Under the pieces are notes generated by a model. That model worked only from the letters and a program-made list of their open reading frames with translations, had not been told where the DNA came from and searched no databases. A DNA stretch of 64,000 nt, from IMG/VR virus record IMGVR_UViG_3300042695_001232; one strand, given 5' to 3'. Origin of the DNA: an uncultured virus (IMG/VR IMGVR_UViG_3300042695_001232). Lineage: Duplodnaviria; Heunggongvirae; Uroviricota; Caudoviricetes. Position 1 is the first letter of the stretch. Every line of letters starts with the position of its first letter. Made by a program: the position numbers and the translations under genes. This document shows, piece by piece, positions 1-64,000 of the stretch.

Positions 1-126
1 ATTCCATGTAATCCATTTAGTATTCATACCACTAAAGAACACGTTGGACACTCACAACCTGATAATTGTATGGGAGTTAATTTTGGAAAAATAGATATTG
101 AAAAAGTAAAAAAGGAAATAGAATGA
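1..126 (+). CDS. 3' end of a hypothetical protein (truncated by window edge)
   Basis: Frame 1 is open from base 1 (IPCNPFSIHTTKEHVG...KKEIE) to TGA at 124-126, overlapping the dUTPase ATG (ATGA coupling). Confidence 0.6.
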   Translation: MPCNPFSIHTTKEHVGHSQPDNCMGVNFGKIDIEKVKKEIE

Positions 127-698: not shown

Positions 699-699
699 T

Positions 700-4308: not shown

Positions 4309-4311
4309 GTT

Positions 4312-5981: not shown

Positions 5982-5984
5982 TTT

Positions 5985-6575: not shown

Positions 6576-6614
6576 AACTACTTCATTTAAAAACGTTATT
6601 CATAATATCGTGAT

Positions 6615-8855: not shown

Positions 8856-8890
8856 AATATAATTTACAACAGATAATAAAAAATAGTTAT

Positions 8891-10455: not shown

Positions 10456-10477
10456 GTAATCACACACCTGTAAAACT

Positions 10478-14297: not shown

Positions 14298-15553
14298 ACA
14301 ATTTCAAATACAGGACAAGGTACAATAAAATGACCTCCACTCATTAGATATGGAGCCTCACGTCTCTTGAATTCATCAATGAAATGCCATGGCAATATCA
14401 AAAGATAATCTGGGTTAGCCTTTCTCATATCTTGTTCGGAATAAATTGTAATATCAGTTCCCACAGTCTTTAGTCCAAACTTATATGGACTACGTTCTGC
14501 TGCACCATCAATCAAAGTCTTATCCAATCCAAAATATTGAAGAAGAGTATTTCCCTTGGTTGATGCGCCATAGACCCAAATGCTCTTACCCTTTTCTTTT
14601 TCTTGTTTGATAAAGTTATATGTTTTTTCCTTCAACTCCTGAAGTTTCTTATAGAAATTCATATAAAACTCAACTGTATTTGCTCCAATCTTGTTTTCAT
14701 ACTCCAAAGTAGAGTTAATACGATAACGTGCAACATCACGGTATGGAGCAGTTGCAAATGATGTAACCTTAGCAATATCTTTCTGTAAGTATACTCGGAA
14801 AGATCCACCATTAACATCATTCAACTCACAATCTACAATCTTAAACTTGGCTTTTTCTATAACATGTTTAAATGAATGTAACGAGTAATACATCAAATGT
14901 TCATGACAAATATTGTCAAATGCCATTTGTTGAACCATCAACGGCGTATAACTCATTTGTACTACAAACAAACCTTCATCGTGTAACACATCATATACAT
15001 CATTTAGAAAAGCAACTGGATCCGGAAGATCATAAAACATTGCGATACATGTAATCACATCACACTTTCGTCCTTTAAAAATACTTCGATCAAACGTATT
15101 CTTTGAAAAATACTCCTGAACTACTTGATCAGCAAATTTAACACTTTCTTTGGTATAAGAATCGTCGGCGGGATCAATACCCAAACGTGAATATGGTGAT
15201 GGTACATAACTCAACAATGTTCCATCATTACACGCAATATCTAACCATAGTGGATTATCAGTTGGAGTATGAACCATCATACAACTATCAACCACGTTCT
15301 TAAGTTGATTACGCATCGTCTGATTCGTACCGGAACGGTACCAATATTGGCCATACATTTTGTTAGGATCTGCGCCTTGTTCCAACTGAACCAACTTTGA
15401 TGTAGGAGAATACATCAATTTCATTTCCGACCTATAGTCATCCGATGGTTGGTCCTTGAGAAAGTTTGATATAAACAAATCGCCTAAAGTAAACAATGAA
15501 ACCAATGGGTCATTTGATACTCTACAACTTTTAACTTTTTCAGTGTATTTCAT
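14294..15553 (-). CDS. NDP-hexose C-methyltransferase (TylC3/NovU-like)
   Basis: LDIACNDGTLL, FDNICHEHLMYYS, NGGSFR, YGASTKGNTLLQY, YLLILPWHF, FIVPCP. Confidence 0.88.
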   Translation of the reverse strand: MKYTEKVKSCRVSNDPLVSLFTLGDLFISNFLKDQPSDDYRSEMKLMYSPTSKLVQLEQGADPNKMYGQYWYRSGTNQTMRNQLKNVVDSCMMVHTPTDNPLWLDIACNDGTLLSYVPSPYSRLGIDPADDSYTKESVKFADQVVQEYFSKNTFDRSIFKGRKCDVITCIAMFYDLPDPVAFLNDVYDVLHDEGLFVVQMSYTPLMVQQMAFDNICHEHLMYYSLHSFKHVIEKAKFKIVDCELNDVNGGSFRVYLQKDIAKVTSFATAPYRDVARYRINSTLEYENKIGANTVEFYMNFYKKLQELKEKTYNFIKQEKEKGKSIWVYGASTKGNTLLQYFGLDKTLIDGAAERSPYKFGLKTVGTDITIYSEQDMRKANPDYLLILPWHFIDEFKRREAPYLMSGGHFIVPCPVFEIV

Positions 15554-15554
15554 A

Positions 15555-16421
15555 TTATTCTTTCCAATTTTCTAAACAATTATCCAATGCTTCATCCACG
15601 GTTCTCATTTTAATTCCCACATTCAACAACTTTTGATTACTCATCACACAGTTTGAACGTGGTGTTTTTACAGCCGTTTTATAAAAGTCATCTTCATTGT
15701 CAAAAAACTCAAAGATCTTGTCTTTAGCAATTGTTTTTTGCATCTTTTCAATAACTTGTTTAGTAGTCACAAAACCAGTATTTGTAACATTATATGTTCC
15801 GTATGGAACCTTTTTAACAAGAGTTTGTACACAAGCGTTAACAAAATCTTGTTTATTAGATATAGAGTTTTCAGCATCCAAAAGTTTCTTATAATTCAAC
15901 ATCTTGGACAAATAGTTTCGAGGATTGTGTTTTTCTTCAAATGGAATACGTAGTCTCCAAATATAATGATTGCCCCAATTGTGTCGAATGACATCCTCAG
16001 CAAGTGCTTTAGTTCCGCTATAAAAACTACAATTGTTTTGTTCAAAACTAAAGTTTGGACGGTCGTTTTCAGTGAATGGCGTACCATCTGATCTACGTCC
16101 TGTATAAATACACCCAGACGATACATGTCCAAGTAAAATTCCGTTGTTACGGCAAAATATTGATAACATCTCTGGAACTACAACGTTTCCATAAATGGTA
16201 TTGTGTTTATCAGTTTCACAAGCATCCACATTTGGTTTGCCTGTATATCCAGCACAGTTAACTATAGTTGTTAACTTTAATGTTTTATGTAACAGATCCA
16301 AATGAGTATACGTCAACTCCTTGGTAGGAGTTGAACACGTTCTAACTGGAAGACCGTTTTGAAATAATTGTTTATTGAATTCGTGGCCAATATAACCAGA
16401 TGCGCCTAATAGTAAAATCAT
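15555..16421 (-). CDS. NDP-4-keto-6-deoxyglucose 3,5-epimerase/4-reductase (UER1/NRS-ER-like; RmlD-related)
   Basis: LLGASGYIG, AGYTGKPNVDACE, SSGCIY, SFYSGTKA, WRLRIPF. Confidence 0.8.
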   Translation of the reverse strand: MILLLGASGYIGHEFNKQLFQNGLPVRTCSTPTKELTYTHLDLLHKTLKLTTIVNCAGYTGKPNVDACETDKHNTIYGNVVVPEMLSIFCRNNGILLGHVSSGCIYTGRRSDGTPFTENDRPNFSFEQNNCSFYSGTKALAEDVIRHNWGNHYIWRLRIPFEEKHNPRNYLSKMLNYKKLLDAENSISNKQDFVNACVQTLVKKVPYGTYNVTNTGFVTTKQVIEKMQKTIAKDKIFEFFDNEDDFYKTAVKTPRSNCVMSNQKLLNVGIKMRTVDEALDNCLENWKE

Positions 16422-16436
16422 AACTGTTCATATATA

Positions 16437-17279
16437 TCATATGACAGATTCTAAATAATTTCTATATTCCGATTTTGGCGTTTTTTCTATCAATTTAACA
16501 AATTGTGTTTGATCGATAAATTTTTGATTTAAACACTCTTCTTCAATACATGCAATTTTACATCCTTGACGGTCTTGTACAGTCTGTACATAATTACTTG
16601 CTTGTCCCAATGTTGTTGGTGACCCTGCATCCAACCAAACCGTACCTTTTGGCATTTTTACTACATTCAAATTCCCCTCTTCCATATATCTACGGTTGAT
16701 ATCGGTGATCTCATATTCACCACGTTTGGAAGGTTTCAATATTCTAGAATATTCAATTACATTATTGTCGTAAAAATATAGGCCAGGAACCGCATATTTG
16801 CTTTTAGGCATCTTTGGTTTCTCTTCAATAGACAACGCTTTGCCGTTAGAATCAAACTCAATTACACCATATTCTTGAGGATTGTTTACTTTATAAGCAA
16901 ATATTACCGCACCGGTGAAATCGACCTTCATACGGTTGAATCCGTGAAACACATTGTCACCCAAAATCAAACAAACACTGTCGTTACCAATAAAGTCTTC
17001 AGCAATCAAAAACGATTGTGCAATACCATCCGGTTTTGGTTGTACCTTGTAGGTCAGATTCAATCCTAAATGTTCACCATCACCAAATAACTTTTGGTAC
17101 AATGGAAGAAAATCATATGATGATATGATGCAAATATCTTTGATTCCACAAGAAATTAATGTTGATAGTGGATAATAAATCATCGGTTTATCATATACCG
17201 GCAACAATTGTTTATTAACAACTGTTGTCAATGGATATAACCTAGATCCTGTACCGCCTGATAAAATAATACCTTTCAT
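16437..17279 (-). CDS. rmlA: glucose-1-phosphate thymidylyltransferase
   Basis: GIILSGGTGSRLYPLT, KQLLPVYDKPMIYYP, LGDN, EEKP, RGEYEITD, WLDAG. Confidence 0.97.
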   Translation of the reverse strand: MKGIILSGGTGSRLYPLTTVVNKQLLPVYDKPMIYYPLSTLISCGIKDICIISSYDFLPLYQKLFGDGEHLGLNLTYKVQPKPDGIAQSFLIAEDFIGNDSVCLILGDNVFHGFNRMKVDFTGAVIFAYKVNNPQEYGVIEFDSNGKALSIEEKPKMPKSKYAVPGLYFYDNNVIEYSRILKPSKRGEYEITDINRRYMEEGNLNVVKMPKGTVWLDAGSPTTLGQASNYVQTVQDRQGCKIACIEEECLNQKFIDQTQFVKLIEKTPKSEYRNYLESVI

Positions 17280-21023: not shown

Positions 21024-22199
21024 TTATCTACCAACCTCTTGAAAAAAATTACTCTTAGCGGTGTTATATGACATATCCATTATAGAGTTATAGTACAATA
21101 TGTCCTTCTTAAGGTTATTTTCAGACTTCAATTTCAAATATCTATCTTTGGCTTTTACTTTCCACCAGTCCAAAATAGCCTTTTTATCATCAAAAAACAA
21201 CTTTTTCATCACCAGTTGGTCTTCATTTACCTTGTTTTGTAAGAATTCCTTGGTATTTTCATAAAAACTACTATAGTAGACACCACGCTCATACCCATGA
21301 ACATAATTTTGAGTTTTAATATTCAATTCCTGAAATATCATGCTTATAACTCGCTGTTTAGCACCTGTTACTGGTCCAGACACATCATCCTTTTGTGTCA
21401 TTTTCTTGGTATATTCCTCAGATTTGTTCTCCTTGATCCAATCATGCCAAATCTGATATACATGGTCGTCTGGCTTAATAGGTATTTTACCAGTACTTGT
21501 ACCACACTTGTGCCACCATTTCAAACTATTATACATACTATAACTACCATATAAACTAGTAGTAGTCATGCCAACCAAAGTTTGATTATAAAGTTTCTTC
21601 CAAACATCTCTAACCACAGATGATGTGACCAAACACGCAACCAACTTACCACCTAAAAAATTATATCCAAACGGCTGAGTACTCATAATACAACTTCCAA
21701 TCGCACTATGCGTCAATTTGCCCTCTTCCAACTTGTTCTTTGGAGTCCATCCAATATACTTGTCACGATCCGTAATGGTAATAACGTCACTTGATACAGA
21801 AACCGCTCCTAGGTACCGTGTGCGCTCACTGTTACCGTCTGTGATGAGAAACTTCAAAAACCTACCCGGAGTTTGACTAAACTCCATCGTATGACAAAAT
21901 ACACGCAACATCAACCAATCCAATTCTTGTTGTTCCGTTTCAACATGAACCATAGTAGGATTCAATTCATCCAATTCTTTCAACGTCAATTCTTCATTGT
22001 AAATATCAGTTGGCTTCCAGATTTTATACTTAACATCATCTGATCGGGACGCAAAGTTACGATATTCTCTGACCTCTTCCCATTTCTTATAAAACGTAGC
22101 TTCTTCTACGCTCATAGACTTCAAATAGTTCATATTGTCTATGAACTTTTGTTTTTCTACGTCATATGGAAAATCGTCTATTTGGAAAAATTGATTCAT
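21024..22199 (-). CDS. DUF4338 / Druantia DruA-like protein
   Basis: PGRFLKFL, RDKYIGW, QPFGYNFLGGKLVA, TTTSLYG..SMYN motifs recognised as DUF4338-like. Confidence 0.7.
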   Translation of the reverse strand: MNQFFQIDDFPYDVEKQKFIDNMNYLKSMSVEEATFYKKWEEVREYRNFASRSDDVKYKIWKPTDIYNEELTLKELDELNPTMVHVETEQQELDWLMLRVFCHTMEFSQTPGRFLKFLITDGNSERTRYLGAVSVSSDVITITDRDKYIGWTPKNKLEEGKLTHSAIGSCIMSTQPFGYNFLGGKLVACLVTSSVVRDVWKKLYNQTLVGMTTTSLYGSYSMYNSLKWWHKCGTSTGKIPIKPDDHVYQIWHDWIKENKSEEYTKKMTQKDDVSGPVTGAKQRVISMIFQELNIKTQNYVHGYERGVYYSSFYENTKEFLQNKVNEDQLVMKKLFFDDKKAILDWWKVKAKDRYLKLKSENNLKKDILYYNSIMDMSYNTAKSNFFQEVGR

Positions 22200-52047: not shown

Positions 52048-53835
52048 TTATTTTCGTGTCCATTCAAACTTAAAGTGTCCACAGTCCCATATGCGATCAT
52101 AACCATTAATTTGCATGTTCTGCCATTCACTCAAACCACTATCAAACTTTTCTAAGATTCTATTAAGCTTGTGTTTTTGAAAATGAGTTCTATTCATTGG
52201 AATACCGTTATTTTTATGAAAATAATGATAACCACAGGGAGTATTTTTCAACCTCCGCATACCCAACCTTTCGTAAACTTTTCCTGTAAATAAACGTTTA
52301 TCGCTGTAAGTCACAACTGAACTCACATCATAATTTTTAATAAAATGCGTGAATAACTTAGAAGATCCTCCCACAATATTTGTGTTTAACAAATTGCAAT
52401 ATCTAGATAGTTCGTATTGATATTTTTTATCGTATCTGGATTTGACAAATGTCATTATAGAAACCAATGCGTTGTTATGATATAACCCTAATCGTACTGA
52501 TGACGTATCATCTCCCTGTATATGATTGTCTTCCAAAAAGGTTGATTTATCTTCATTTGACACTTCTTTAACCACACATTTTCGTGCATAAACTTTCGCA
52601 GATTTACCCATCTTATTAATCAAAATACTTTTAATTATAGAGTTTTTGCACCGCCATTCCCAATCCCATATGTGCATCAATTGAATATTTTTATCAAGTG
52701 ATAACTTAGTTTTGTTTAAATGATAGTGTTTATCTTTACCGCCAACAAGTTCACTATGCCAGTATATTCCGTTATATTCGATACCCAAATTTAAGTTTGG
52801 TATTAAAATATCAATTTCTTGTCCATTTAATGTATTTCTATCATTCTCTATAATTTCAGCATCACAAATTGTTTTTATATAAGATAAAATTTCTTTTTCT
52901 TCACTTGAAATATTACTTGTTATTGGATTACAAATTCTGCAAATAGGCGAACTACCATTACACATATCATCTACAAAAATATTAGAACATCTTAAACATT
53001 CAAATTTATATTTTTTATATTCATTCACACCAACATATTCATCTTCTGAAAATAAAAATTTAACAATTGATGAATATTTTTCTTCTAATCGTTTAAATGA
53101 TTTTTTTAATAAAATATTTGAATATGACCCATATTTTTCTATAGTTGTTTTTTTAGCTTTGTTACTAAAGTTTTTAGTGCCATATCTGTCTAATTTTGTT
53201 TTGTTTGCTTTATTACTAAAATCTAATGTACCATATTTATCTAGTTTAGTCCGTTTTGATTTATCGTTTACATTTAAAGTACCGTACTTTTTTAATTTTG
53301 TTTTGTTTGCTTTATCACTAAAATCTAAAGTTCCATATTTATTTAATTTTGTTTGTTTAGCAATCTCGTTATTATTAAAATATTCATGTCCATATTTATT
53401 TAATTTTGTTTTTTTAGATTTTTCTTGTACCTCTTTCAACGAAAAAATACTTTCTACGCCGTATTTTTCTAAATTATTTTGAATTAATGTATTTTTTCGT
53501 TTGTCGTTTCTTTCACTTGATTTAGCATGAAACGTTTCACATTCAGGTGAACATAATTTTTTTCTTTTAGAACTTCTCGTAACTACAAAAGTAGTATTAC
53601 AATAGATGCAATTTCTATTTTCTAAATTTGTTTTTTGTTGATGCTTATTATGACACACAGTATTACAAAAAATTTTATTTTTAATTGTAGACTGTTTTCC
53701 TAATAGGACGTTGCAAAATTTACAAAAAATATCTGATGAATTTACATACAAATTTTCACATATAATATTACAAAAAAAATTACTATGATTATCGCTCAAT
53801 CTTTTTTTACATTGATTACATCTTTTATAAGGCAT
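52048..53835 (-). CDS. free-standing putative homing endonuclease (Zn-finger N-terminus, KYG repeats, PD-(D/E)xK/Vsr-like domain)
   Basis: Several CxxC motifs, ~17-aa KTKLxKYG repeats, EIDILIP..GIEYNGIYWH, HIQG/ELSRYC/GGSSKLF/YSD C-terminal domain; markedly AT-rich. Confidence 0.75.
   Translation of the reverse strand: MPYKRCNQCKKRLSDNHSNFFCNIICENLYVNSSDIFCKFCNVLLGKQSTIKNKIFCNTVCHNKHQQKTNLENRNCIYCNTTFVVTRSSKRKKLCSPECETFHAKSSERNDKRKNTLIQNNLEKYGVESIFSLKEVQEKSKKTKLNKYGHEYFNNNEIAKQTKLNKYGTLDFSDKANKTKLKKYGTLNVNDKSKRTKLDKYGTLDFSNKANKTKLDRYGTKNFSNKAKKTTIEKYGSYSNILLKKSFKRLEEKYSSIVKFLFSEDEYVGVNEYKKYKFECLRCSNIFVDDMCNGSSPICRICNPITSNISSEEKEILSYIKTICDAEIIENDRNTLNGQEIDILIPNLNLGIEYNGIYWHSELVGGKDKHYHLNKTKLSLDKNIQLMHIWDWEWRCKNSIIKSILINKMGKSAKVYARKCVVKEVSNEDKSTFLEDNHIQGDDTSSVRLGLYHNNALVSIMTFVKSRYDKKYQYELSRYCNLLNTNIVGGSSKLFTHFIKNYDVSSVVTYSDKRLFTGKVYERLGMRRLKNTPCGYHYFHKNNGIPMNRTHFQKHKLNRILEKFDSGLSEWQNMQINGYDRIWDCGHFKFEWTRK
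53130..53470 (-). repeat. imperfect ~51-bp coding tandem repeats (DFSxKANKTKLxKYGTL)
   Basis: About six KxTxxxKYG units in the translation. Confidence 0.75.
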
Positions 53836-53910: not shown

Positions 53911-53944
53911 AAAAAAACCCCACCTATTTCTAGGTGAGGTTTTG
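53911..53944 (-). terminator. rho-independent terminator after the tail sheath gene
   Basis: Minus strand AAAACCTCACCTA-GAAA-TAGGTGGGGTTTTTTT. Confidence 0.85.
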
Positions 53945-53962: not shown

Positions 53963-56900
53963 TTAAGCACCGAACGATGCACCCGTAGGCAAGATGTTGA
54001 AATCAAGAATAATGAATTCAGCAGTCTTGGTTGGTTGTAGGAAGATTTGACCATAAAGGATATTTCTATCAATCAAATCAGGTGTATTATTTGTTTCATC
54101 CATCTTCACTTGGAAAGCGTACACACCACTACGTTGTTGAACCTGTTCAAGGTAAGGATTTACAATACTCAAGAAACGGTTACGTGTATTTGCGACGTTC
54201 TGTTCGAAAATCAAGAAACGTGAACTTGAAGCAATAAACTTCTTCAAGTTGATCATCAAACGACGAACATTGATACGATCCAATGCACTTGGGGCAATTT
54301 GAAGAGTTTTTTGACCCCATACACAGATACCCTGACCGGGGAATGCTGCAATTGGGTTCACACGACCTTCATAGAGGGTATCACGTTCACCGTGTGTCAA
54401 ACGATCCAACACTTGAACTGCTTGTGTAATACCACCACGGTTTAAACCAGCTGGAGCAAACCATTCAGCAGATGCTTTATCGTTTGCTGCGTAGATAGCA
54501 GGTAGAACAACTGATGGTGGAACACTAACAATCTTGTTCAAATTGGTATCAAGAATCTTGACCCATGGATAGTATGTAGCAACGTAACTGCTGTCAATTG
54601 TAGCAGCCACATTAATAGCAGCATCAATCAATCCAACGCTTTGATTGCTCTTAGGGAATACCACGTTATCCATGATATAGAAACAATCACCACGTGCTTC
54701 ACACATATCAATTGTCAACTGTGCCACATAACTGTGGTGTTGATAGAAGATACCCGGAGTCACAATCAAGTTAATATCAAACTCGTCAGCATTACCTAGT
54801 GCACCAATACATTGTCTGTAAGCAATACTGCCTGGACTTGTAATACTAGTACAGTTCAAACCTTGCGTGTTGCCTGGAATGATATCAGATCCAACGTTGA
54901 TTGGAATTGCTGGTGATTGACCATCAAATCCACCTTGGAATCCAAGTATAAACTTACGCATCTTCACACGGGTTGATTCGTATGCAGCGTCATAAGTTGA
55001 TGGAATACCAGCACTGTCGTTTTGAACATCTGGTTGTTTAGAACCAACTGGATTGTATGTATCACCTGTTTCAAGGTCAAATACAACATTGTTGCCAATT
55101 GAACTAAATCCTTCATAAGAAGGCAATGGAGCAAAGTATTGAATATTGTCGTTATATACACTGTATACACCAAGTGATGATGTAGGATACAATGCCAACA
55201 AATCATCAGCTGCACCAATTGGTGGTTCACCGAATACAATACCAGATGGATATCTACCCGGAGCAGTTGAATATGTTGATGCGCGACTGAATTGAACTGG
55301 TGGCAAATATCCACCGACGTTACCACCAAGTGGTGTAGCAAGAGCATCAAATCCGTAAGGAACTGCTGATATTGGATACACGTTCTCGGTCATTTCAATA
55401 CGAATATTCTTACTCAAATTGGAATACGTACCAAACTCAATAATCTTACCGGAGTAAGAAATATAGTTGTAACGATCACCAATACGACGAGCAATGAAGT
55501 TGCTGCTATCAGGATCAAGATTCAAGTTTTGGAAACGTTCCAAATACTTAGGATTCTTATCAGTATCACTAAACTTACGTACTGCCAATGTAAATGAACC
55601 ATAATCACTACCAGTAACGGTACCAGCGAGTTTTACATCACTGATTTCGATCTTGTATGACGTGTTCATATTGGTTCCGTCAGCAAGAGTGTGAACACGG
55701 AATAATGGGAAACGTTGTGGTTGTGCAGTTACATCTGATGTACCAGTAAATGGTGCAACTTGTTGTGAGTTAATCCAAGGTGTTGATGCCCACTTCAAAC
55801 TAAAATCACTATCACCAGTTGTTGGTGCGTAACCGTAGTCGTCAGTAAACTTCATTGGATTACCATTAAAGGTAAGTTCATTTGCACCCCCAGATGGAAC
55901 ATATGGAGCTGAACTACCAACAATCAACCATCCATCAGATGGATCTGTTGCTTCTTGAACAATACGTCCAATTGTATCCTTGAAGATCTTATATAAATAA
56001 GCAGCTTCAATCTTTTGACCAGCAACTTGTTTTGCTGGATCACCAGCAGTTGGATCAGATCCAAACACGTTGGTAATATAATTAGAACTTGCTGGATCCA
56101 ATGAGAATTCATAGATTCCGTAACTTCCACTTGTACCACCGATGTTATAACGCAAATCAAGAACAAAGTCTTGTGCGGTCGGATCAATACTACCACTGTA
56201 CAATCCTGATGTTGCAATCTTCTTACTTAAAGCAGAACCCTCAAATCCATATACAACTTGTGCCAATTTGTTATTGGCATCAGATTGAATGGCTGCATTT
56301 TGTGTATTTGCCAATACAGCTAAAACTATAGACTCACGAGCAACACCATCATTACAAGGATCTCCACCAGAAACCGTAGTTTCAACAAATGAAGTGTATT
56401 TACCAAAACTACCGCTAATGTTACATGTCAATTGAATTTGAACACCACAGCTATTAGCTGGACGATATTTAGCAAAACTGATGTTATTGATAATAACTTC
56501 AGATGCGGTACCAGACACAGGGAAATCATCACTCAACTTAACCAAACTGCTGCTTGTTGCCAAACTTCCAGAGAACTTTCCGGTTTGTTCAGCAAGAGCA
56601 CGCAACAACTTAGCATCTGCACTAAGTGATCCGTCACCTTGATAACTTGAACTGATTTCAAAGTGCGCAGCATCAAATGTAAAATGTACATCACCGATGT
56701 AACGAGTGGTATATGTCTTGTTGCCTGGTGTTCCCGGTGGGTTGTACACTGAGAATGAACTGGTTTCAAAGTTTGCGTACAAACTACCAGTAATCGTCAA
56801 TGTTTCAGTTGCACTAGAACTGACATATTGAATATTGACCATGATATCATCAGGATCAAGAGCAATATATGATGAATCAGCAGTTCCCAAAGCGGTAAAT

Positions 56901-57268
56901 GAACCACTTTCGGTGGCACGATTATAATAACCCGGAATTGCGTAAATCACAAACGGATTATCTTGTTCGTAACCTGTTAACGCACCTACACGACACACAG
57001 TCACAAGACCTTGTTCTTGTAGATATTGTTTAGCAGTGTAAGGACCGTAATATACTCCGTCCGCTACACCAAATTTTTCTTCTAACTCAGCAACGCTGGT
57101 GACAACTGTTGGAGCAAAACCCGGTCCCTTTGGAAAGGGAGCGACAATTGCTCCACCAATATCAGCAACACCCTGAGCGAGACCTGATAGGTCGTTTTCA
57201 CGACTAAAAACGCCCGGACTCACTATTGGATTATGTGGAGTAAATGTACCCCCTTCTGTAATTGGCAT
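53963..57268 (-). CDS. contractile tail sheath protein (gp18-like), enlarged
   Basis: VSPGVFSRE, KGP, YYPWV, WFAPAGLNRG, LYEGRVNPI, WGQKTL, DRINVRRL, PTKTAEFI. Confidence 0.95.
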   Translation of the reverse strand: MPITEGGTFTPHNPIVSPGVFSRENDLSGLAQGVADIGGAIVAPFPKGPGFAPTVVTSVAELEEKFGVADGVYYGPYTAKQYLQEQGLVTVCRVGALTGYEQDNPFVIYAIPGYYNRATESGSFTALGTADSSYIALDPDDIMVNIQYVSSSATETLTITGSLYANFETSSFSVYNPPGTPGNKTYTTRYIGDVHFTFDAAHFEISSSYQGDGSLSADAKLLRALAEQTGKFSGSLATSSSLVKLSDDFPVSGTASEVIINNISFAKYRPANSCGVQIQLTCNISGSFGKYTSFVETTVSGGDPCNDGVARESIVLAVLANTQNAAIQSDANNKLAQVVYGFEGSALSKKIATSGLYSGSIDPTAQDFVLDLRYNIGGTSGSYGIYEFSLDPASSNYITNVFGSDPTAGDPAKQVAGQKIEAAYLYKIFKDTIGRIVQEATDPSDGWLIVGSSAPYVPSGGANELTFNGNPMKFTDDYGYAPTTGDSDFSLKWASTPWINSQQVAPFTGTSDVTAQPQRFPLFRVHTLADGTNMNTSYKIEISDVKLAGTVTGSDYGSFTLAVRKFSDTDKNPKYLERFQNLNLDPDSSNFIARRIGDRYNYISYSGKIIEFGTYSNLSKNIRIEMTENVYPISAVPYGFDALATPLGGNVGGYLPPVQFSRASTYSTAPGRYPSGIVFGEPPIGAADDLLALYPTSSLGVYSVYNDNIQYFAPLPSYEGFSSIGNNVVFDLETGDTYNPVGSKQPDVQNDSAGIPSTYDAAYESTRVKMRKFILGFQGGFDGQSPAIPINVGSDIIPGNTQGLNCTSITSPGSIAYRQCIGALGNADEFDINLIVTPGIFYQHHSYVAQLTIDMCEARGDCFYIMDNVVFPKSNQSVGLIDAAINVAATIDSSYVATYYPWVKILDTNLNKIVSVPPSVVLPAIYAANDKASAEWFAPAGLNRGGITQAVQVLDRLTHGERDTLYEGRVNPIAAFPGQGICVWGQKTLQIAPSALDRINVRRLMINLKKFIASSSRFLIFEQNVANTRNRFLSIVNPYLEQVQQRSGVYAFQVKMDETNNTPDLIDRNILYGQIFLQPTKTAEFIILDFNILPTGASFGA

Positions 57269-57487
57269 ATGTTAAATTTCCTTTCAATTAGTTAAGTTGC
57301 ATGAAAAACATACAAAAAACTCTAAATATAAATATTTCTAAAAATTTGAAAGACAACATATTTATATTTTAAGTCTACTTTTTAAAGAAATGTCATATGC
57401 ACACTCATACTGACGTTTAGTACCCTATAATATGGGTATTAAACATCTTCCCAATTAACCACTAAAACATACCCCAATCAATTGATT

Positions 57488-59584
57488 TCAAGAGGTGCGT
57501 ATACTTTCAGTCTTAATAAGGTCATTGATTTTATCTATAACCATTTGAGAACTAATTTGTTTAGAACACTCAAACTGTCTATCAGTACCCTTTTGTCGAG
57601 GGCACCAATTCCAATCACCCTTATCAAAATCACAATCATTCCAACAACCATGACACACGTCTTTGTTAATAACACGGTAAGGTGTATAAAACTCACTCTC
57701 TGGTAAACTAAATCCACTCACCAAAACCGTTGGCTTATTCAATGCCCATGACAACCATGATAACCCCGATCCAATTCCAACAAAGAATTCACAGTTATAC
57801 AACAAATTTATAGTTTCGTGTATATCCTTTGCACCAGACTTGTTAATAATATTAGTAATATCATTCTTTTCTTCCAACTGAATCAACATTGGTTTCAAAC
57901 CAATACTATTCAAATAATCACACATTTCCTGCCAACCAGTAGGATTATTCCAAAACTTAGCCTGCGAAGTAGAATGTGTGGCAAAACAAACATAACGATC
58001 TTCAACAAGACGATTCTTATTTCTAACAGAAATTTTTGGTTTAATGTCTGTATGATCAAGTCCCAATATCGAAGATGACAATTTCTGTAATGTAACCTCT
58101 TTATATGTATAAAATGAACGATGTTTATCAGGATAACAACCAATTCGGTAAACGGCGTAAAAATCACCATGCCATTCTAATCCACAAAACTTAATGTCAG
58201 GATAATTGTCTTGAAACAATGTGCTCCAATTTGTTGCACACGTGATATTGCACCCATGTTTCTTTCTAAACTCCTCTACATACGGAAACCAAGCAATACA
58301 ATCACCCAATGATCGTGTATCCAAACAAATCAACACGTTTTTGTTTTTCAAATCTAACTTACTATCCAAAATTAATTTTGACCCCGAACTAATTTTAATG
58401 TTGTACGGAATAAAACGCTTCACAAAACACCGAGACCATTCATTTGATTTTAACGTGCCACCAAATAATGAAGTACCAGTATTTTCATCAACAAAATCAA
58501 AATCGTACTTAGTTGATGGATCGCCACCGTTTATAGAAATATAAGCTCCATCACAATAATCAATTGTGATCTTCGCACTCTGGTGTTGCTTGACATTCAT
58601 AAGTGTTTGATCATAAACATCGTTCAGTTCGTTTTTCATACGATATTCATCCACTTTTCTATACTCTTTGATCAAATCATCAACAACAAAGTTCCAATCA
58701 TTCGATTTAGCATATGTTAACGCATCTCGTCGCAATTGCTGCCAGTTATTCATTACAGTAGATATTCCTTTATATACTGATTCAACATTACGTTCTATCT
58801 TAACCATGCCTGGCAAAGCATCAGTATCATATGTAGAAACTACCGGAAGTGCACATGACATAGCTTCAACCAACGTCAAATTAGGATGACCGGCCTCAAC
58901 TGACGATGGATGTAGAAAAATAGTATGATCACGATAAACTTCAACCAAATCTTTTTCGTTCAAATCATACAAAAATTTCACTTTGTCATACGGCTTGAAA
59001 TCTTTGTTGGTTTCAAAAAACTCTTTATTAGCAGATGGACCAGCAATAGTCAATTCAAGATCATGCTTACGAGCTGCCTCAATTGCATAAACAAACCCTT
59101 TACGGTCAAATGACATGTTTGCATGTAATCCGTTTCTTCCAACACACAACAACTTATGTTTTTTATTATTAGGATCACCCGGAGTAAAAAATGATGTGTT
59201 AGCACCATGACGCAAATACTTTACACGTCTACTATTAAAATACGAAACCAAATGAGTGGCAGGAACAAAGGAAATTATAGACTTTTCCATCGCCTCACGA
59301 TTCTGATTATATAATGCAGACTGATCACCATATACTTCAGTATGATGATCGTGCATGGTAAACACATAAGGAATTTTACGTTCATGTGCAAGTAAAGCCA
59401 AATTAGCAACATGAATATGAACTACATCATAGTTTTCAACTTTAACATCATCCAAATATTTAATGTCACAAACATGACCCATTCTTTCCAATGATTGCTT
59501 ATATTCCCATATAATCTTTTCTATAGCTCCCCAACCATTTGGTGGTATCGATATCAATCCCGGTGTAACTTGACAAATTCTCAT
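57488..59584 (-). CDS. GT4 domain fused to an autotransporter O-heptosyltransferase (TibC/Aah-like) domain
   Basis: N-terminal IPPNGWGAIE...EAGHPNLTLVEAM; C-terminal SLGDCIAWFPYVEEFRKKH, STSQAKFWNNP.GW, FVGIGSGLSWLSWA, SGFS..SEF, CHGCWND...WCP...FECSKQI. Confidence 0.85.
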   Translation of the reverse strand: MRICQVTPGLISIPPNGWGAIEKIIWEYKQSLERMGHVCDIKYLDDVKVENYDVVHIHVANLALLAHERKIPYVFTMHDHHTEVYGDQSALYNQNREAMEKSIISFVPATHLVSYFNSRRVKYLRHGANTSFFTPGDPNNKKHKLLCVGRNGLHANMSFDRKGFVYAIEAARKHDLELTIAGPSANKEFFETNKDFKPYDKVKFLYDLNEKDLVEVYRDHTIFLHPSSVEAGHPNLTLVEAMSCALPVVSTYDTDALPGMVKIERNVESVYKGISTVMNNWQQLRRDALTYAKSNDWNFVVDDLIKEYRKVDEYRMKNELNDVYDQTLMNVKQHQSAKITIDYCDGAYISINGGDPSTKYDFDFVDENTGTSLFGGTLKSNEWSRCFVKRFIPYNIKISSGSKLILDSKLDLKNKNVLICLDTRSLGDCIAWFPYVEEFRKKHGCNITCATNWSTLFQDNYPDIKFCGLEWHGDFYAVYRIGCYPDKHRSFYTYKEVTLQKLSSSILGLDHTDIKPKISVRNKNRLVEDRYVCFATHSTSQAKFWNNPTGWQEMCDYLNSIGLKPMLIQLEEKNDITNIINKSGAKDIHETINLLYNCEFFVGIGSGLSWLSWALNKPTVLVSGFSLPESEFYTPYRVINKDVCHGCWNDCDFDKGDWNWCPRQKGTDRQFECSKQISSQMVIDKINDLIKTESIRTS

Positions 59585-59586
59585 AT

Positions 59587-62019
59587 TTATTTAGCCAATG
59601 ACTTAGTTGTAAAAATTTTGATATAACTATGCAAATCAGATAATGATCCAATTGTTTTAAATTGATGCAAATGATTATTATTAATCACATACACATCCAC
59701 ATTCTTTTTGCTAGACTTGTAATACGGACTCATGCCAATATAAGGAGTATCACCAATAACCAAACCAAGAACGGATTCATGGTTATCAACCAAATACTTG
59801 TGAGCCTGACGAACACTCTGAACAAACTCTTCAGACTTTACATTCAATTGAACATTCTTAATTACCACATTTATATTGTTGTTATAATTAAACAAATTGT
59901 TCACCACATCAATCTCAGAACTTTGAATGTAATTACGATAAACACATTTATGCGCACTTAGTTCTGATAAATCATTAAACAAAATATCGTTTGGATTAAC
60001 ATGGTGTATATTAATCGTGTTCGACGCATTCACTGCCGAACGAGGCATCAATGTAAACTTACCATTGTCTCGTATCTGATTAATATCACTAAATTCAATG
60101 TTCCTTCTATCAATAACCTTCAAATCAGAATTATATTCTTCCAACATAACAAGGTATTTACTTCCAGTCTTATATTTGACCGGTTGATAAAAAATACCAT
60201 TCATTAACTGTTGATAAGCAACTTTTAATACTATCTTGTTATCTTCATATACTCTGATACTCACCGACTTGTTATCAACTACATTATTAGAACTCTTCCA
60301 AATATAAAAACTAGACAAATCATCGTTTGGTACCACTGAGAAATATTCTACCCTAGAAAACGCATTCAAAGAACTATTCGGAAATATCTTCTCTTCCTTG
60401 TCTTTAGTCAAAGTAAAACTGCTCAAATCATTCTTTAATACATTATAAACATAATTCTCCAAACCATTCGACGGAGAATTATATTTCACAAGACTAGCAT
60501 TATACTCACTCTCAGTATCAACCCTCTCAAACTTTTCTATGAAATAATCATTGTCAATTACAAAAAATACAGTTTTTAACGTGTCTCCTTCACCCATAAC
60601 TTCATGGATAAAATACCCCTTGCTCTTAGACACTTCCAAATCATTAACAATAGTACCAATTACACTCAAATCACCGCCACTCAATACTATATCATAATTC
60701 AAACATACACTGTACTTATAACCCAACTCCTTAGACTTACGTATACCATTCTGATAATTGGTCCAAACAGCCAACCCATGATAATTATCATTGTCGTTCT
60801 TCTTCAAATTCAAATCAAAGTCAAACACATTATCACGATACCAATACTTACAATAAAAATTATGCTTGATTATAGGATTACTAACATCATACACAACACT
60901 ATTAGCTATAGTGTTAAACTTCTCATAATCAGAATGATGGGTCGTCAATATAGTCTCCGAATCACTCAAAGCATTCAAACACTGTACTGTAGTATCAAAT
61001 TCAACAGATGTCGTTGGATACGTCGAAACAACATAAGCATAGTTACGCTTTTTATTCTGAATATTCAAACACGACTTGATCTTTTTAACATTGTCATTCA
61101 AATCATTCGACAAATAAGAAATATTTGAATATCTGTTATACATGTTCAAATATACAGGCAAATTATATATCAACGATGGTATCTTATAACTAATCGCCTC
61201 TCGTATTACAATCGGACTAGTCTCTTTATCATTCTCACTTCCACGACTCGTAAACAAAAACAAATCCATACAACTGTAAAACGTATCAACATCATTACGT
61301 TCACCCCACGCCTTACAGTTCTTTGGCAAATTCTTAAGCAACGGTGACCAATATGATTCAAAATTTCCAGCGGTGTTTCCAACAAAATGAAACTGCACCG
61401 GACAATCTAACATCTTATTAGCATATTCAATAATTTCACCCTGATTCTTACGACGCGACCACAAACCAACATTAACAATATGCAACAACGACGGATCCAA
61501 TCCCAACTTTCTAAGAACTTCATCACGATTGCTCGCCTTATCCTTAATGTATATTGGATACTCAATTACATGTGAAGGTACATTAAGTACACTCAATGCA
61601 TTTTTTTGATAGTTGCTAACAAATACAAACCGATCCGGAAAAAATCGCTTGTTAGCAGAATTAAAACTGCTGTCGTGGGATGTCTCAACAATATGATACT
61701 TACGTTCATTGTTATACACCTTCGCAGTAACATCATCCGACATAAAATACTCTGGCATCTCCTCCAAATGTATTATGTCCGGTTGAATATCATCTATAAT
61801 CGATAACAATTGATGCTTGTTATCTCCCAATACATGATAACAATCACCAAGCAGTTCACGTACTTGAGTCTTTTGTACTATGAACCACTCACCGTAATTG
61901 TTATACTCAACACAATATAACTTATGTGTATCTTTTAATACATTCAGTTTCTTCAAAAGATACTGCGGACACCCCCCAGTAGATAAATGAGGAGTGATAT
62001 ATAAAATTTTATAACTCAT
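59587..62019 (-). CDS. multidomain glycosyltransferase (GT4 N-terminus plus an uncharacterised DxD-like domain)
   Basis: PHLSTGGCPQY, NVGLWSRRKNQ, DLFLFTS...ETSPIVIREA; second half contains LNYDIV. ATG at 62019 preferred. Confidence 0.75.
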   Translation of the reverse strand: MSYKILYITPHLSTGGCPQYLLKKLNVLKDTHKLYCVEYNNYGEWFIVQKTQVRELLGDCYHVLGDNKHQLLSIIDDIQPDIIHLEEMPEYFMSDDVTAKVYNNERKYHIVETSHDSSFNSANKRFFPDRFVFVSNYQKNALSVLNVPSHVIEYPIYIKDKASNRDEVLRKLGLDPSLLHIVNVGLWSRRKNQGEIIEYANKMLDCPVQFHFVGNTAGNFESYWSPLLKNLPKNCKAWGERNDVDTFYSCMDLFLFTSRGSENDKETSPIVIREAISYKIPSLIYNLPVYLNMYNRYSNISYLSNDLNDNVKKIKSCLNIQNKKRNYAYVVSTYPTTSVEFDTTVQCLNALSDSETILTTHHSDYEKFNTIANSVVYDVSNPIIKHNFYCKYWYRDNVFDFDLNLKKNDNDNYHGLAVWTNYQNGIRKSKELGYKYSVCLNYDIVLSGGDLSVIGTIVNDLEVSKSKGYFIHEVMGEGDTLKTVFFVIDNDYFIEKFERVDTESEYNASLVKYNSPSNGLENYVYNVLKNDLSSFTLTKDKEEKIFPNSSLNAFSRVEYFSVVPNDDLSSFYIWKSSNNVVDNKSVSIRVYEDNKIVLKVAYQQLMNGIFYQPVKYKTGSKYLVMLEEYNSDLKVIDRRNIEFSDINQIRDNGKFTLMPRSAVNASNTINIHHVNPNDILFNDLSELSAHKCVYRNYIQSSEIDVVNNLFNYNNNINVVIKNVQLNVKSEEFVQSVRQAHKYLVDNHESVLGLVIGDTPYIGMSPYYKSSKKNVDVYVINNNHLHQFKTIGSLSDLHSYIKIFTTKSLAK

Positions 62020-62078
62020 TATATTAAAATAGTGATCAATGACCACTAAAATTTATTTTAATTTTTCAATCGTTATTC

Positions 62079-64000
62079 TCAGGTAAATATTGGACTGTAC
62101 GACCATCCATTTGTTGAGTCATAAACGTACAAACGTTTTTCATCGGCATCCCAATACATAGCAGCACGGTTGGCTGTCAAAGTAAGAGCTTGACCATCAT
62201 TGAGGAGATCGCCCGTTGGTGCACCTGCATCACATGGAATCCAAACAAACCCATATGTCATAGCGGCGAAACCGGTAGTTGCACTGTACAAATCACCCAA
62301 GGACTCTGCCCAAAGAGATCCAGTGATTGCCTTGCCACTGGTGTCATCCCACTTGACTAAGTAGTCTTGGAAACCACTTGCTTGTCCAGTTACGTCACCA
62401 CCACCACCAGCGCCTGGTGCACCTTGTGCACCCGATGTACCCGAGGTTCCACTTGTACCTGAAGTACCTGAAGTACCTGAAGTACCAGATGTTCCACTTG
62501 TACCGTTTCTACCCGATGTACCCGAGGTTCCACTTGTACCAGATGTACCAGCGGCACCCGATGTACCGGTTGTACCAGATGAACCACTGCCACCCGGAGA
62601 ACCCGCACCTGATGTACCAGATGTACCGCTTGGACCTTGTGCACCCGAAGTACCTGACGTACCCGATGTACCCGAAGTACCACTTGTACCTGATGTACCC
62701 GAAGTACCTGACGTACCCGAAGTACCACTTGTACCACTTGTACCACTTGTACCTGATGTACCAGTTGTACCCGATGTACCGTTTCTACCTGATGTACCAC
62801 TTGTACCTGATGTACCTGAAGTACCACTTGTACCACTTGTACCCGAGGTTCCACTTGCACCTTGTACACCCGAAGTACCCGAAGTACCAGCTGCCCCAGC
62901 TCCTCCAGATTCACCAGAGAAACTAAATGTCAAATTCTGAACAGTACCCCATGTATTATCTCCATTACCAGATCCAAGACCAGTGATACCGAAAACCCAA
63001 TATCTTTTCAAATTAAAATAAGCAGCACTAGTAATTTTATAGATCTGCCATGTTGTAGGATCATCTTTTGCTGTTACTGTAACGACTGCTTTTGTAGGAT
63101 TATTAACGTTATTTATTGTATTAAATAAGTCAAAATAATTATTTCCCGGAGCAACAAATGGATATGAGTATTCTGATATATACAAACTTCCACTGACGGC
63201 ACCGGCTGAACCACTAGCCACAGTTGTTACGTTTGGAGCGGAATCACGAATGTTTGTATCGTACAACCACTGTATAACGTTAGACGCGTTCTGACCTGCT
63301 GCACCCGATGTACCACTTGTACCTGATGTACCTGATGTACCCGATGTACCCGATGTACCCGATGTACCCGATGTACCCGATGTACCACTTGTACCTGATG
63401 TACCACTTGTACCCGATGTACCACTTGTACCTGATGTACCTGAGGTTCCACTTGTACCTGAGGTTCCACTTGTACCCGATGTACCCGATGTACCCGATGT
63501 ACCCGATGTACCCGATGTACCCGATGTACCCGATGTACCCGATGTACCCGATGTACCCGATGTACCCGATGTACCACTTGCACCATTTGCTGTCCATGTC
63601 ATAACCAATCGATCAGCGGGTTCAGCAAGATTGTCGGTGAATGGATCAATCGATGATGACATAACTGGAGTACCAGTTATTTGGAAACCTACAAACGGAC
63701 TAGATGCAAACTCTTGTACGGATGTAACTTTAGTGATTACGAATCTACTAGAACTGAAAGCGTGACTGACTCTTAAATATCCAGGCACAGATGCCGATAC
63801 AGATTGCCACCATTTTGTTACATTCGTCGTTGGTGTTATACTAAAATCACCTGGCGGATATAAAGTCATTGATCTGTAATCAACGTTAATAACACTACCG
63901 AACGAAGCAGTTGGGAAACATGCTTCTGCTGCGAAGACTGGATAATAATCTGGATCCTTAGCTACGCTTGCGTATCTATACAATACTGAATTACCGCCAA
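62079..64000 (-). CDS. collagen-like (Gly-Thr-Ser)n fibre protein; 5' end beyond window
   Basis: Frame open to the window edge; two long G-X-Y blocks dominated by GTS; C-terminal MYWDADEKRLYVYD..W fibre-type motif. Confidence 0.8.
   Translation of the reverse strand, partial: GGNSVLYRYASVAKDPDYYPVFAAEACFPTASFGSVINVDYRSMTLYPPGDFSITPTTNVTKWWQSVSASVPGYLRVSHAFSSSRFVITKVTSVQEFASSPFVGFQITGTPVMSSSIDPFTDNLAEPADRLVMTWTANGASGTSGTSGTSGTSGTSGTSGTSGTSGTSGTSGTSGTSGTSGTSGTSGTSGTSGTSGTSGTSGTSGTSGTSGTSGTSGTSGTSGTSGTSGTSGAAGQNASNVIQWLYDTNIRDSAPNVTTVASGSAGAVSGSLYISEYSYPFVAPGNNYFDLFNTINNVNNPTKAVVTVTAKDDPTTWQIYKITSAAYFNLKRYWVFGITGLGSGNGDNTWGTVQNLTFSFSGESGGAGAAGTSGTSGVQGASGTSGTSGTSGTSGTSGTSGTSGRNGTSGTTGTSGTSGTSGTSGTSGTSGTSGTSGTSGTSGTSGTSGTSGAQGPSGTSGTSGAGSPGGSGSSGTTGTSGAAGTSGTSGTSGTSGRNGTSGTSGTSGTSGTSGTSGTSGTSGAQGAPGAGGGGDVTGQASGFQDYLVKWDDTSGKAITGSLWAESLGDLYSATTGFAAMTYGFVWIPCDAGAPTGDLLNDGQALTLTANRAAMYWDADEKRLYVYDSTNGWSYSPIFT
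62410..62900 (-). repeat. 9-bp-period coding repeat (GTS)n, block 2
   Basis: Degenerate gtacccgat/gtaccactt/gtacctgaa units. Confidence 0.9.
63302..63585 (-). repeat. 9-bp-period coding repeat (GTS)n, block 1
   Basis: Includes 11 perfect gtacccgat copies at 63472-63570. Confidence 0.92.

Follow-up and report, generated by a model that had tools for sequence, protein, structure and literature searches.

The locus described here raises the question of whether a bacteriophage glycosylates its own tail fibre. It lies at the end of a 64,000-nucleotide stretch of DNA (the window), the minus strand of bases 391-64390 of the IMG/VR virus record IMGVR_UViG_3300042695_001232, which comprises 126,384 bases and is estimated to be about 40% complete. 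At this locus, a collagen-like fibre gene is followed on the same strand by two glycosyltransferase (GT) genes, designated P0002 and P0003, the second of which encodes a relative of the heptosyltransferase TibC, and then by the gene of the tail sheath. A first-pass annotation, made from the sequence alone, had read these genes as a candidate protein O-glycosylation system, and the four open reading frames (ORFs) were found where it had placed them, all on the minus strand:

62079-63998, minus strand: 3' part of the fibre gene (P0001), open at its 5' end, 639 amino acids (aa) in the window; Pfam Collagen
59587-62046, minus strand: P0002, 819 aa; Pfam Glycos_transf_1
57488-59584, minus strand: P0003, 698 aa, start codon 2 nucleotides (nt) past the P0002 stop
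53963-57268, minus strand: tail sheath, 1,101 aa; Phage_sheath_1, Phage_sheath_1C; phrog_23 at 3.2e-69

Because a TibC relative is encoded just after the gene of a giant, proline-free Gly-Thr-Ser (GTS) fibre, the phage probably sugar-coats its own fibre. In the full scheme, which the sequence leaves evenly balanced in our judgement, P0003 would be a late product, expressed alongside fibre and sheath, and in the infected cell the hydroxyl groups of Ser, possibly also of Thr, on a virion structural protein would receive their first sugar from a nucleotide-sugar donor through the TibC/Aah-type (BAHT family) domain of P0003. The acceptor would most likely be the giant collagen-like fibre with its (Gly-Thr-Ser)n repeat, whose gene lies just upstream. 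This first sugar would then be extended by the GT4 domain of P0003 and the GT4 and GT-A domains of P0002, and the outcome would be a densely glycosylated, proline-free fibre. We infer from these genes the activity of the enzyme, the fibre as its acceptor, the identity of the sugar, the sequence in which the GTs would act, a triple-helical repeat and the role of the glycan (stability, protease or immune shielding, or adhesion).

The BAHT domain of P0003 and its partner domains

The proposal that P0003 contains a TibC/Aah-type heptosyltransferase domain was borne out by a hidden Markov model search. The NCBIfam profile TIGR04414 (hepto_Aah_TibC) matched P0003 with an expectation value (E) of 4.6e-100 and 335.2 bits against a cut-off of 200, over positions 6-373 of the 374 in the profile, and the catalytic Asp is kept, so that the refuting condition set by the first-pass annotation (a missing BAHT match or the loss of this Asp) did not apply; a six-frame search of the record with the same profile gave 337.3 bits. 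Pfam placed Glycos_transf_1 on residues 160-284 (52.1 bits; cut-off 26.4) and Glyco_transf_9 on residues 522-645 (27.4 bits), and the sole match of a phmmer search against PDB was TibC (4RAP, E 7.9e-70). An AlphaFold model of P0003, obtained from a 14-sequence alignment, had a predicted local distance difference test score (pLDDT) of 86.7. Foldseek aligned it to TibC (4RAP and 4RB4) at E of about 1e-34, with target-normalised template modelling (TM) scores of 0.85-0.87, a root-mean-square deviation (rmsd) of 3.2-4.1 Å and 35% identity. The N-terminal half matched MshA, BshA and PimA at target-normalised TM scores of 0.6-0.7, and a low-confidence, flexible linker was modelled past the GT4 domain, at residues 324-334. 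Profile and model together place the C-terminal half of P0003 securely as a bona fide member of the TibC/Aah (BAHT) family. The parts of the protein are as follows:

58655-59584, minus strand: N-terminal GT4 domain, residues 1-310 (Glycos_transf_1, 52.1 bits)
57488-58588, minus strand: BAHT domain, residues 333-698 (beta-barrel 338-409, catalytic GT-B 416-698)
58301-58303, minus strand: catalytic Asp428, aligned with Asp-110 of TibC
57566-57655, minus strand: four-Cys iron-finger motif, residues 644-673, from the alignment to TibC

The two motifs that had drawn attention to this domain were recovered: residues 425-432 read SLGDCIAW, and CHGCW...WCP...C spans residues 644-673. According to passages of PMC4358343, TibC has Asp-110 as catalytic base, Thr-226, Lys-230, Trp-305 and Arg-286 as sugar-binding residues, and Cys-339, Cys-342, Cys-358 and Cys-370 in its iron finger. 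Pairwise alignment matched Asp-110 to D428 of P0003, Thr-226 to T539, Lys-230 to K543 and Trp-305 to W610, and the four cysteines to C644, C647, C661 and C673. Four of the five catalytic or sugar-binding residues are kept in P0003, the position of Arg-286 being occupied by Thr591. Relatives were collected from IMG/VR, where 144 viral contigs encode a BAHT; the best 80 of the 144 were retrieved together with flanks of up to 10 kb in either direction, and their BAHT domains, clustered at 80% identity, gave 40 clusters. Across 45 unique viral BAHT domains, the Asp and the Trp were found in all 45, Thr or Ser at the position of Thr-226 likewise in 45, the Lys in 44 and each Cys in 44.

Other features of the domain weigh against an enzyme that works as TibC does. 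The Arg-286 position, which contacts heptose in TibC, has Arg in 12 of the 45 viral domains. The position that governs stereoselectivity, which TibC fills with Pro-300 and AAH with Ser-294 (passages of PMC4358343), is Gly605 in P0003; of the 45 viral domains, 29 carry Gly there, 15 Ser and one Pro. According to the same passages, the TibC dodecamer is held together by a beta-hairpin thumb. By pairwise alignment, this thumb is 8 residues shorter in P0003 than in TibC; in the multiple alignment, the P0003 clade is without about 10-16 residues found in other viral homologues, and the P0003 model has no long hairpin at residues 568-587. These changes, together with the heptose pathway genes that were not found in the 126-kb record, would fit a BAHT domain that is altered or inactive and serves as a lectin- or chaperone-like fibre assembly factor, or one that uses a non-heptose donor with a chemistry unlike that of TibC. 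We consider such a domain improbable. The Asp, the counterparts of Lys-230 and Trp-305 and the four Cys are near-invariant across domains only 36-45% identical to that of the window, which argues for a selected enzyme, and the Arg is also replaced (by Val) in phages of the L028 group and in L030, which carry an rfaE-domain-I-like kinase gene adjacent to the BAHT gene. In addition, the host may supply ADP-heptose to a phage whose record is only partly complete.

The identity of the sugar bears directly on this point. Heptose, which the first-pass annotation had assumed, lost ground: rfaE (including its domain II), gmhA, PfkB and SIS genes were not found in the 126-kb record, either by Pfam on 74 ORFs or by TIGR02199 and TIGR00441, and Arg-286 of TibC is replaced by Thr. 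Since the record is about 40% complete, genes missing from it do not show absence from the phage. In other phages (L028, L053-L056 and L030), a stand-alone BAHT gene is followed, about 380 bp downstream, by the gene of a kinase-like protein of about 250 aa (11460-12212 in L028, 11471-12214 in L030), which resembles the ORF of contig L101, itself similar to rfaE domain I (heptose-7-phosphate kinase). The L101 ORF, used as query for this kinase, reached 115.7 bits on the rfaE domain I model, below its cut-off of 345. A kinase of this kind beside the BAHT gene in two clusters makes heptose plausible for some phage BAHTs, and the sequences hint that some phages bring part of the heptose pathway. 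Arg-286 was also considered as a marker of heptose use and was rejected, as the clusters with the rfaE-domain-I-like kinase beside the BAHT gene have Val there.

GT domains that could extend a first sugar, as the first-pass annotation had supposed, are present in both proteins. It had described P0002 as a GT4 multidomain protein; the GT4 domain was recovered, and the description was incomplete in that a GT-A-fold domain is present as well:

61027-62046, minus strand: GT-B/GT4 domain of P0002, about residues 1-340 (Glycos_transf_1, 33.5 bits against 26.4, on residues 175-336)
60355-61029, minus strand: GT-A-fold domain of P0002, about residues 340-564 (model pLDDT 82)
59587-60354, minus strand: beta-sandwich and C-terminal alpha/beta domain of P0002, about residues 565-819 (model)

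P0002 starts either at the GTG at 62046 or at an ATG at residue 10, where its Atlas record begins. On its C-terminal 480 aa, Pfam at E up to 5 gave nothing and the Atlas gave unnamed viral clusters only. Foldseek with the whole C-terminal model returned only partial matches of low TM score, and a wide VIA search then resolved the GT-A domain. Its VIA-align matches, at Z 10-11.4 and rmsd 3.0-3.7 over 153-174 residues, were B4GALNT1, POMGnT1, hyaluronan synthases, GnT-I and TarP, and A64R of PBCV-1 followed at Z 9.5; nucleotidyltransferases of the same fold also reached Z 9-10 against this middle domain (model residues 1-225). From sequence and models taken together, P0002 and P0003 carry three clear GT domains and one probable one.

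The collagen-like fibre as candidate acceptor

The ORF that had been described as fibre-like, with long GTS blocks, matched Pfam Collagen (E 2.6e-32, 110.8 bits; cut-off 27.2) as well as several PHROG tail-fibre families. Its 639-aa part in the window contains 68 GTS triplets, arranged in three blocks (63288-63584, 62601-62915 and 62397-62594), and is composed of 124 Gly, 115 Ser, 110 Thr and 22 Pro among other residues. Globular domains separate the GTS blocks and a 105-aa domain forms the C-terminus; on three globular segments of the fibre, Pfam at E up to 5 found no family. Both the window edge and the contig start truncate the ORF, which is at least 769 aa long in this record. A longer IMG/VR contig, G001 (134,428 bases), is 100% identical over 16.9 kb and adds 13.5 kb, which lie entirely within the fibre frame. 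The fibre ORF in G001 has at least 5,275 aa with its 5' end still open, a length that depends on a repeat number obtained by short-read assembly of 9-bp tandem repeats and possibly wrong; as a rule, the contigs of this phage and of related ones break off within the fibre gene. Gly-X-Y runs account for 4,405 of these 5,275 residues, the longest run having 2,397, and 1,142 of the 1,467 triplets are GTS. The composition is 29% Gly, 26% Ser, 26% Thr and 0.7% Pro. Five globular domains of 124-171 aa lie between the collagen-like runs, and the 105-aa domain stands at the end.

The rise of the collagen triple helix is 0.286 nm per residue, at which the collagen-like part would span about 1.26 µm if it were triple-helical. 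A stronger form of the scheme is a micrometre-long, proline-free "glyco-collagen" in which nearly every triplet would be O-glycosylated by the BAHT-type enzyme and extended by the GTs, and in which the sugars would take over the stabilising role of hydroxyproline and form a glycocalyx; BAHTs would in that case be general modifiers of repetitive fibres rather than autotransporter specialists. We regard this form as rather doubtful.

Two further observations concern the fibre gene itself. ORFs of 174-182 aa at 62378-62926 (plus strand) and 62390-62914 (minus strand) are by-products of the repeat and not genes, because 9-bp repeats keep the other frames and the other strand open. The fibres of L009-L011 and L013 and the giant fibre of L030 end in a TSDRRLKKNI-type segment, which we take to be typical of the self-cleaving intramolecular chaperone of endosialidase-like fibres; the window fibre ends in a different domain, that of 105 aa.

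The co-occurrence of the enzyme with Ser/Thr-repeat proteins in other phages, which the first-pass annotation had named as a check, was then evaluated in the 80 fetched BAHT loci. By thresholds that we chose ourselves, we counted an ORF as collagen-like from 10 Gly-X-Y triplets upwards, and as Ser/Thr-rich when these residues filled at least 0.6 of the X and Y positions. A collagen-like ORF was found in 51 of the 80 loci, always on the strand of the BAHT gene, and in 24 of the 40 clusters; in 18 of the 40, a Ser/Thr-rich one with Pro near zero lies within 10 kb. The gaps between BAHT and collagen genes go down to 20-30 bp (L016, L048/49 and L064), and the architecture of the BAHT proteins varies from stand-alone forms of about 380-410 aa through GT4 fusions of about 700 aa to forms of 911-1,273 aa. 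As a lineage control, 80 loci were collected by searching with a profile built on the C-terminal domain of the sheath, which in these loci is 61-85% identical to that of the window. Only two of them (L239 and L242) encode a BAHT, and Ser/Thr-rich collagen occurred in 2 of the 78 others (L251 and L306), or in 2 of 18 when the count was restricted to loci without BAHT that extend at least 6 kb upstream of the sheath. Fisher's test of BAHT clusters against this control gave p = 1.7e-8 for all 78 and p = 0.016 for the 18, values which, like those below, overstate the evidence because the loci share ancestry and are not phylogenetically independent.

A generic collagen control pointed in the same direction. 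Among 80 loci on 69 contigs that were found by a Gly-Pro-X DNA pattern, the median Ser/Thr share over 156 collagen-like ORFs was 0.16, and the only two ORFs that reached 0.6 (2,846 and 2,645 aa) were in the sole two loci with a BAHT (L318 and L332; Fisher p = 4e-4). In the reverse test, a BAHT gene was found within 10 kb in 7 of 64 contigs identified by a Gly-Thr-Ser-type DNA pattern, as against none of 67 Gly-Pro-X contigs without Ser/Thr-rich collagen (p = 0.006). The pairing was seen both in the lineage with the adjacent sheath and in clusters without that sheath, and it is present in the 735-kb megaphage LR756501; it was not found in LR756504. A scan of bacterial genomes, in which single-protein patterns reach close relatives only, gave 9 loci. 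One of them, L452, a 254-kb contig in a metagenome-assembled genome of an uncultured Bacteroidetes, encodes a 924-aa BAHT fusion with a GTS/GSS/GSN collagen-like ORF 6.8 kb upstream, as in phage cluster L069; it probably belongs to a jumbo phage and was binned together with bacterial DNA, or else it hints at the host. In L456-L459, large Gly/Ser/Thr-rich ORFs without Gly-X-Y periodicity lie beside the BAHT gene. With 18 of 40 clusters against 2 of 78 controls, the expected co-occurrence was found, and these comparisons support a linkage of BAHT genes to Ser/Thr-rich collagen-like fibres that is real and specific.

The converse idea, that Ser/Thr-rich collagen is generally flanked by GT genes, was rejected: a GT gene lies within 4 kb in 2 of 38 BAHT-negative contigs (L115 and L134), in a neighbour scan that covered 136 of 168 ORFs and left out 8 of two near-duplicate loci, 18 below 175 aa and the 6 longest. 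A third BAHT-negative contig, L101, has its sugar-kinase-like (rfaE-I-like) gene near the collagen.

Besides the shared ancestry of the loci, several findings weigh against the fibre as acceptor. As the neighbour scan indicates, Ser/Thr-rich collagen needs no neighbouring GT, and 57 of the 64 Gly-Thr-Ser contigs have no BAHT in view. No collagen-like ORF is in view in 16 of the 40 BAHT clusters. The GTS repeat, which the first-pass annotation had taken as the acceptor, was weakened in particular by three of them. In the closest relatives, L009-L011 (BAHT 72-73% identical), the collagen, of which the last 183-286 aa are visible, is dominated by GAQ with scattered GSS and GTS. L239 has a P0002-like gene and a GT4::BAHT fusion gene directly before the sheath and no fibre within 4.8 kb upstream, where an SbcC-like gene and an FkbM gene are found instead. 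In 16 of the 40 clusters, the sheath gene follows the BAHT gene directly, at 55-1,238 bp. Finally, passages of PMC4358343 describe known BAHTs as recognising a beta-helical strand-loop-strand motif through the iron finger, a target unlike a collagen-type chain.

Because it directly follows the BAHT gene in those 16 clusters, the sheath is an equally adjacent candidate acceptor, and its N-terminal and insert region is long and Ser/Thr-rich in the window phage. The GT pair might thus glycosylate another virion protein, either the outer domains of the sheath, enlarged and Ser/Thr-rich, or globular or beta parts of fibres, the collagen fibre being a mere neighbour in the tail module. L239 and L242 would agree with this, as a P0002-like gene, a GT4::BAHT gene and the sheath gene stand there in this order and no collagen is in view, and so would L027, L028, L030, L047, L068 and L085, which pair the BAHT with a mostly non-collagen fibre of about 2,000-2,470 aa. 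The known BAHT acceptors are beta-helical (passages of PMC4358343), and mycobacteriophage glycans sit on capsid and tail-tube subunits (passages of PMC12619734). Nevertheless, we judge another virion acceptor unlikely. Of the 80 sheath-matched loci, 78 are without a BAHT, and 24 of the 40 BAHT clusters are without this type of sheath. Sheath length is unrelated to the presence of the enzyme, ranging from 576 to 1,311 aa beside a BAHT gene and being 782 aa in the BAHT-less L251 and L306, and the Gly-Pro-X control points specifically to Ser/Thr-rich collagen.

Glycosylation of the collagen-like fibre by P0003 is accordingly the version that we retain at the strength given above. Of the earlier interpretation as a whole, family membership, linkage and the extra GT domains held up, and heptose and the GTS acceptor are either not shown or weakened.

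Gene context, possible glycan-supply genes and occurrence

The order of genes on the minus strand is fibre, P0002, P0003, tail sheath, a terminator-like hairpin and a homing endonuclease gene. The tail sheath that had been noticed after the GT genes was confirmed by its Phage_sheath_1, Phage_sheath_1C and phrog_23 matches, and 219 nt separate its start from the P0003 stop. The hairpin comes from a consensus scan only:

53914-53943, minus strand: terminator-like hairpin, a 13-bp stem followed by a T run, directly past the sheath stop

That terminator scan returned 8 sites against 5.3 expected, and between fibre and sheath it gave no site as strong as the one past the sheath. A scan for promoter-like sites (32 against 39.6 expected) was uninformative. 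Judged from this layout, the GT genes are apparently co-transcribed with the fibre and the sheath.

Further glycan-related genes lie elsewhere in the window:

2016-11383, plus strand: glycan island with GT2, GT11, GT6, GT4-like, HtrL-like and DUF3431 genes and FkbM methyltransferases
13335-17279, minus strand: dTDP-sugar pathway with RmlA, 4,6-dehydratase, sugar C-methyltransferase and RmlD-like reductase

RmlA reached 390 bits against a cut-off of 360.65. The record also encodes a GDP-mannose dehydratase, a DegT aminotransferase, a GNAT protein, three more nucleotidyltransferases, and GT2, GT6, GT11, GT25 and other GTs; altogether the phage has at least 10 further GT-like genes in addition to dTDP- and GDP-sugar pathways. 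The island at 2016-11383 may supply or extend the glycan, and we infer its link to the fibre module, like that of the dTDP-sugar pathway, from the sequence.

As an alternative, the enzymes might act on the host during infection, on surface proteins or envelope glycans, and might block superinfection or remodel the cell, the virion not being the target. In favour of this, the phage has large glycan islands away from the structural module. Bacterial BAHTs do modify cell-surface adhesins (passages of PMC4358343), and serotype-altering phage GTs are known (passages of PMC12619734). For P0002 and P0003, however, a host target appears very improbable: their genes are within the tail module, on the same strand as the fibre and the sheath and apparently co-transcribed with them, no autotransporter-like gene was seen in the record, and the linkage to phage Ser/Thr-rich collagen ORFs would be left unexplained.

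The phage is a large one from lake water and, by its gene content, a myovirus. The record encodes sheath, tube, baseplate hub and tape-measure proteins together with the T4-like replication proteins DnaB, UvsX, a gp32-like protein and ribonucleotide reductase, and PolB outside the window. Three other ORFs deserve mention. A homing endonuclease of 595 aa (52048-53835, minus strand; phrog_3339, E 4e-107) lies in a stretch of 27% GC past the sheath terminator and is probably a mobile insertion in the tail module. An ORF of 391 aa in the replication region (21024-22199, minus strand) matched Pfam DruA, a Druantia defence protein (E 7.6e-23, 81.5 bits against 27). Outside the window, an ORF of 402 aa directly before a nucleotidyltransferase gene (G000:C1:71558-72766; L004:7559-8764) matched the catalytic domain of the RuBisCO large chain (E 6.5e-28, 98.3 bits against 30.1) and may be a RuBisCO-like protein recruited to sugar metabolism.

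The phage is common in lakes and freshwater. Between 83% and 100% of the sampled words of the GT region were present in each of 19 DNA runs from lakes or freshwater, which belong to 19 studies; seven of these runs are possibly sources of this assembly. A megablast search of the region against 50,697 phage records gave no match. A 7,996-nt contig of the independent run X14 shows 41 differences over 54473-62063. Within the GT genes, contigs of X14 and X19 agree with the window to about 99.5%; beyond 62063/62064 they turn into unlike sequence, with at least two different continuations. This boundary sits between the start of P0002 and the 3' end of the fibre gene. As contigs diverge beyond it and the GT genes are conserved, the C-terminal module of the fibre seems to be swapped between strains. 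An RNA run, X20, gave five short contigs (172-251 nt, 0-5 differences) on P0002 and P0003, for which DNA carry-over is possible.

Comparison with known glycosylation systems

According to passages of PMC4358343, BAHTs are established only for autotransporter adhesins of Gram-negative pathogens. Glycosylation of phage virion proteins is known from very few systems. A literature search, which did not cover supplements, found no paper that ties BAHT-type enzymes to phages or to collagen-like proteins. If the proposed activity is true, the BAHT family would extend to viruses and to a new class of substrate, collagen-like Gly-Ser/Thr repeats. The stability of proline-free triplet repeats thousands of residues long would then be explained, and many aquatic jumbo phages might have a glycan coat that affects adsorption, protease resistance, grazing or immune recognition. 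The enzyme could also serve for site-dense O-glycosylation of designed Gly-X-Ser polymers.

The TibC-TibA and Aah-AIDA-I systems of Escherichia coli resemble P0003 in family and in fold, by the profile score and structural alignment given above, as well as in the N-terminal beta-barrel, the catalytic Asp, the counterparts of Thr-226, Lys-230 and Trp-305 and the four-Cys iron finger, whose iron binding is predicted in P0003. Like P0003, they are encoded beside a long, repetitive, hydroxyl-rich surface protein. Unlike TibC and Aah, P0003 is phage-encoded and fused behind a retaining-type GT4 domain, its thumb is shortened, and Thr and Gly replace Arg-286 and Pro-300. Its neighbour is a Gly-X-Y collagen-like fibre and not a beta-helical autotransporter; no autotransporter was seen in the record, the genes on either side of the GT pair being those of the fibre and the tail sheath.

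The Microcystis phage Mel-JY01 (PP395634) is the sole cultured one that encodes a BAHT among the 50,697 phage records. The tail sheaths of Mel-JY01 and the window phage are 44% identical and their BAHT domains 42%, and in both phages a collagen-like ORF precedes the BAHT protein; that of Mel-JY01 is of the (GTS/GSS)n type, has at least 1,016 aa and is accompanied by a Ser-rich structural protein. The BAHT domain of Mel-JY01 ends a 1,226-aa multidomain protein and, unlike that of the window phage, is fused there to other GT and FkbM-type domains; the GenBank record names this enzyme 'methyltransferase FkbM'. At positions 1-3052, the same record has two 'hypothetical proteins' with VPEVP-type repeats on the minus strand (WWT39286 and WWT39287). 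The plus strand there has one frame of at least 1,016 aa with (GTS/GSS)n repeats and a globular C-terminus, and from the sequence the two annotated proteins look like antisense artefacts of the repeat. The 'cytidylyltransferase like protein' of Mel-JY01 and its neighbours gave no NCBIfam match, and no paper on this phage was found in the literature search. A cultured phage with the same module makes the idea directly testable.

Mycobacteriophage GTs O-glycosylate capsid and tail-tube subunits, and the glycans are said to shield the virion (Freeman et al. 2023, via passages of PMC12619734). As proposed here, phage-encoded GTs act there on structural proteins of the phage itself; unlike here, those passages concern other GT families, with the C-termini of capsid and tail-tube proteins as acceptors, and describe no BAHT-type enzyme. 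In Mimivirus, L230 hydroxylates Lys and glucosylates the hydroxylysine through a GT-A domain, in a eukaryote-type collagen pathway (passages of PMC9614988). Both viruses encode low-proline collagen-like proteins together with a glycosylating enzyme, which is a candidate in the present case. Unlike L230, the candidate enzyme of the present bacteriophage, a BAHT with a GT-B fold, would O-glycosylate Ser/Thr directly.

Parallels to a glycosylated collagen-like repeat are also found outside viruses. The triple helix of Riftia cuticle collagen, which has no hydroxyproline, is reported to be stabilised by its glycosylated Thr residues. Both this collagen and BclA, a protein of the Bacillus exosporium, have proline-containing repeats of the type Gly-Pro-Thr or Gly-X-Thr, and the enzymes involved are unrelated to BAHTs. 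The Thr residues in the collagen-like regions of both proteins reportedly carry O-glycans. The window fibre differs from both in its triplet, which is Gly-Thr-Ser with almost no Pro.

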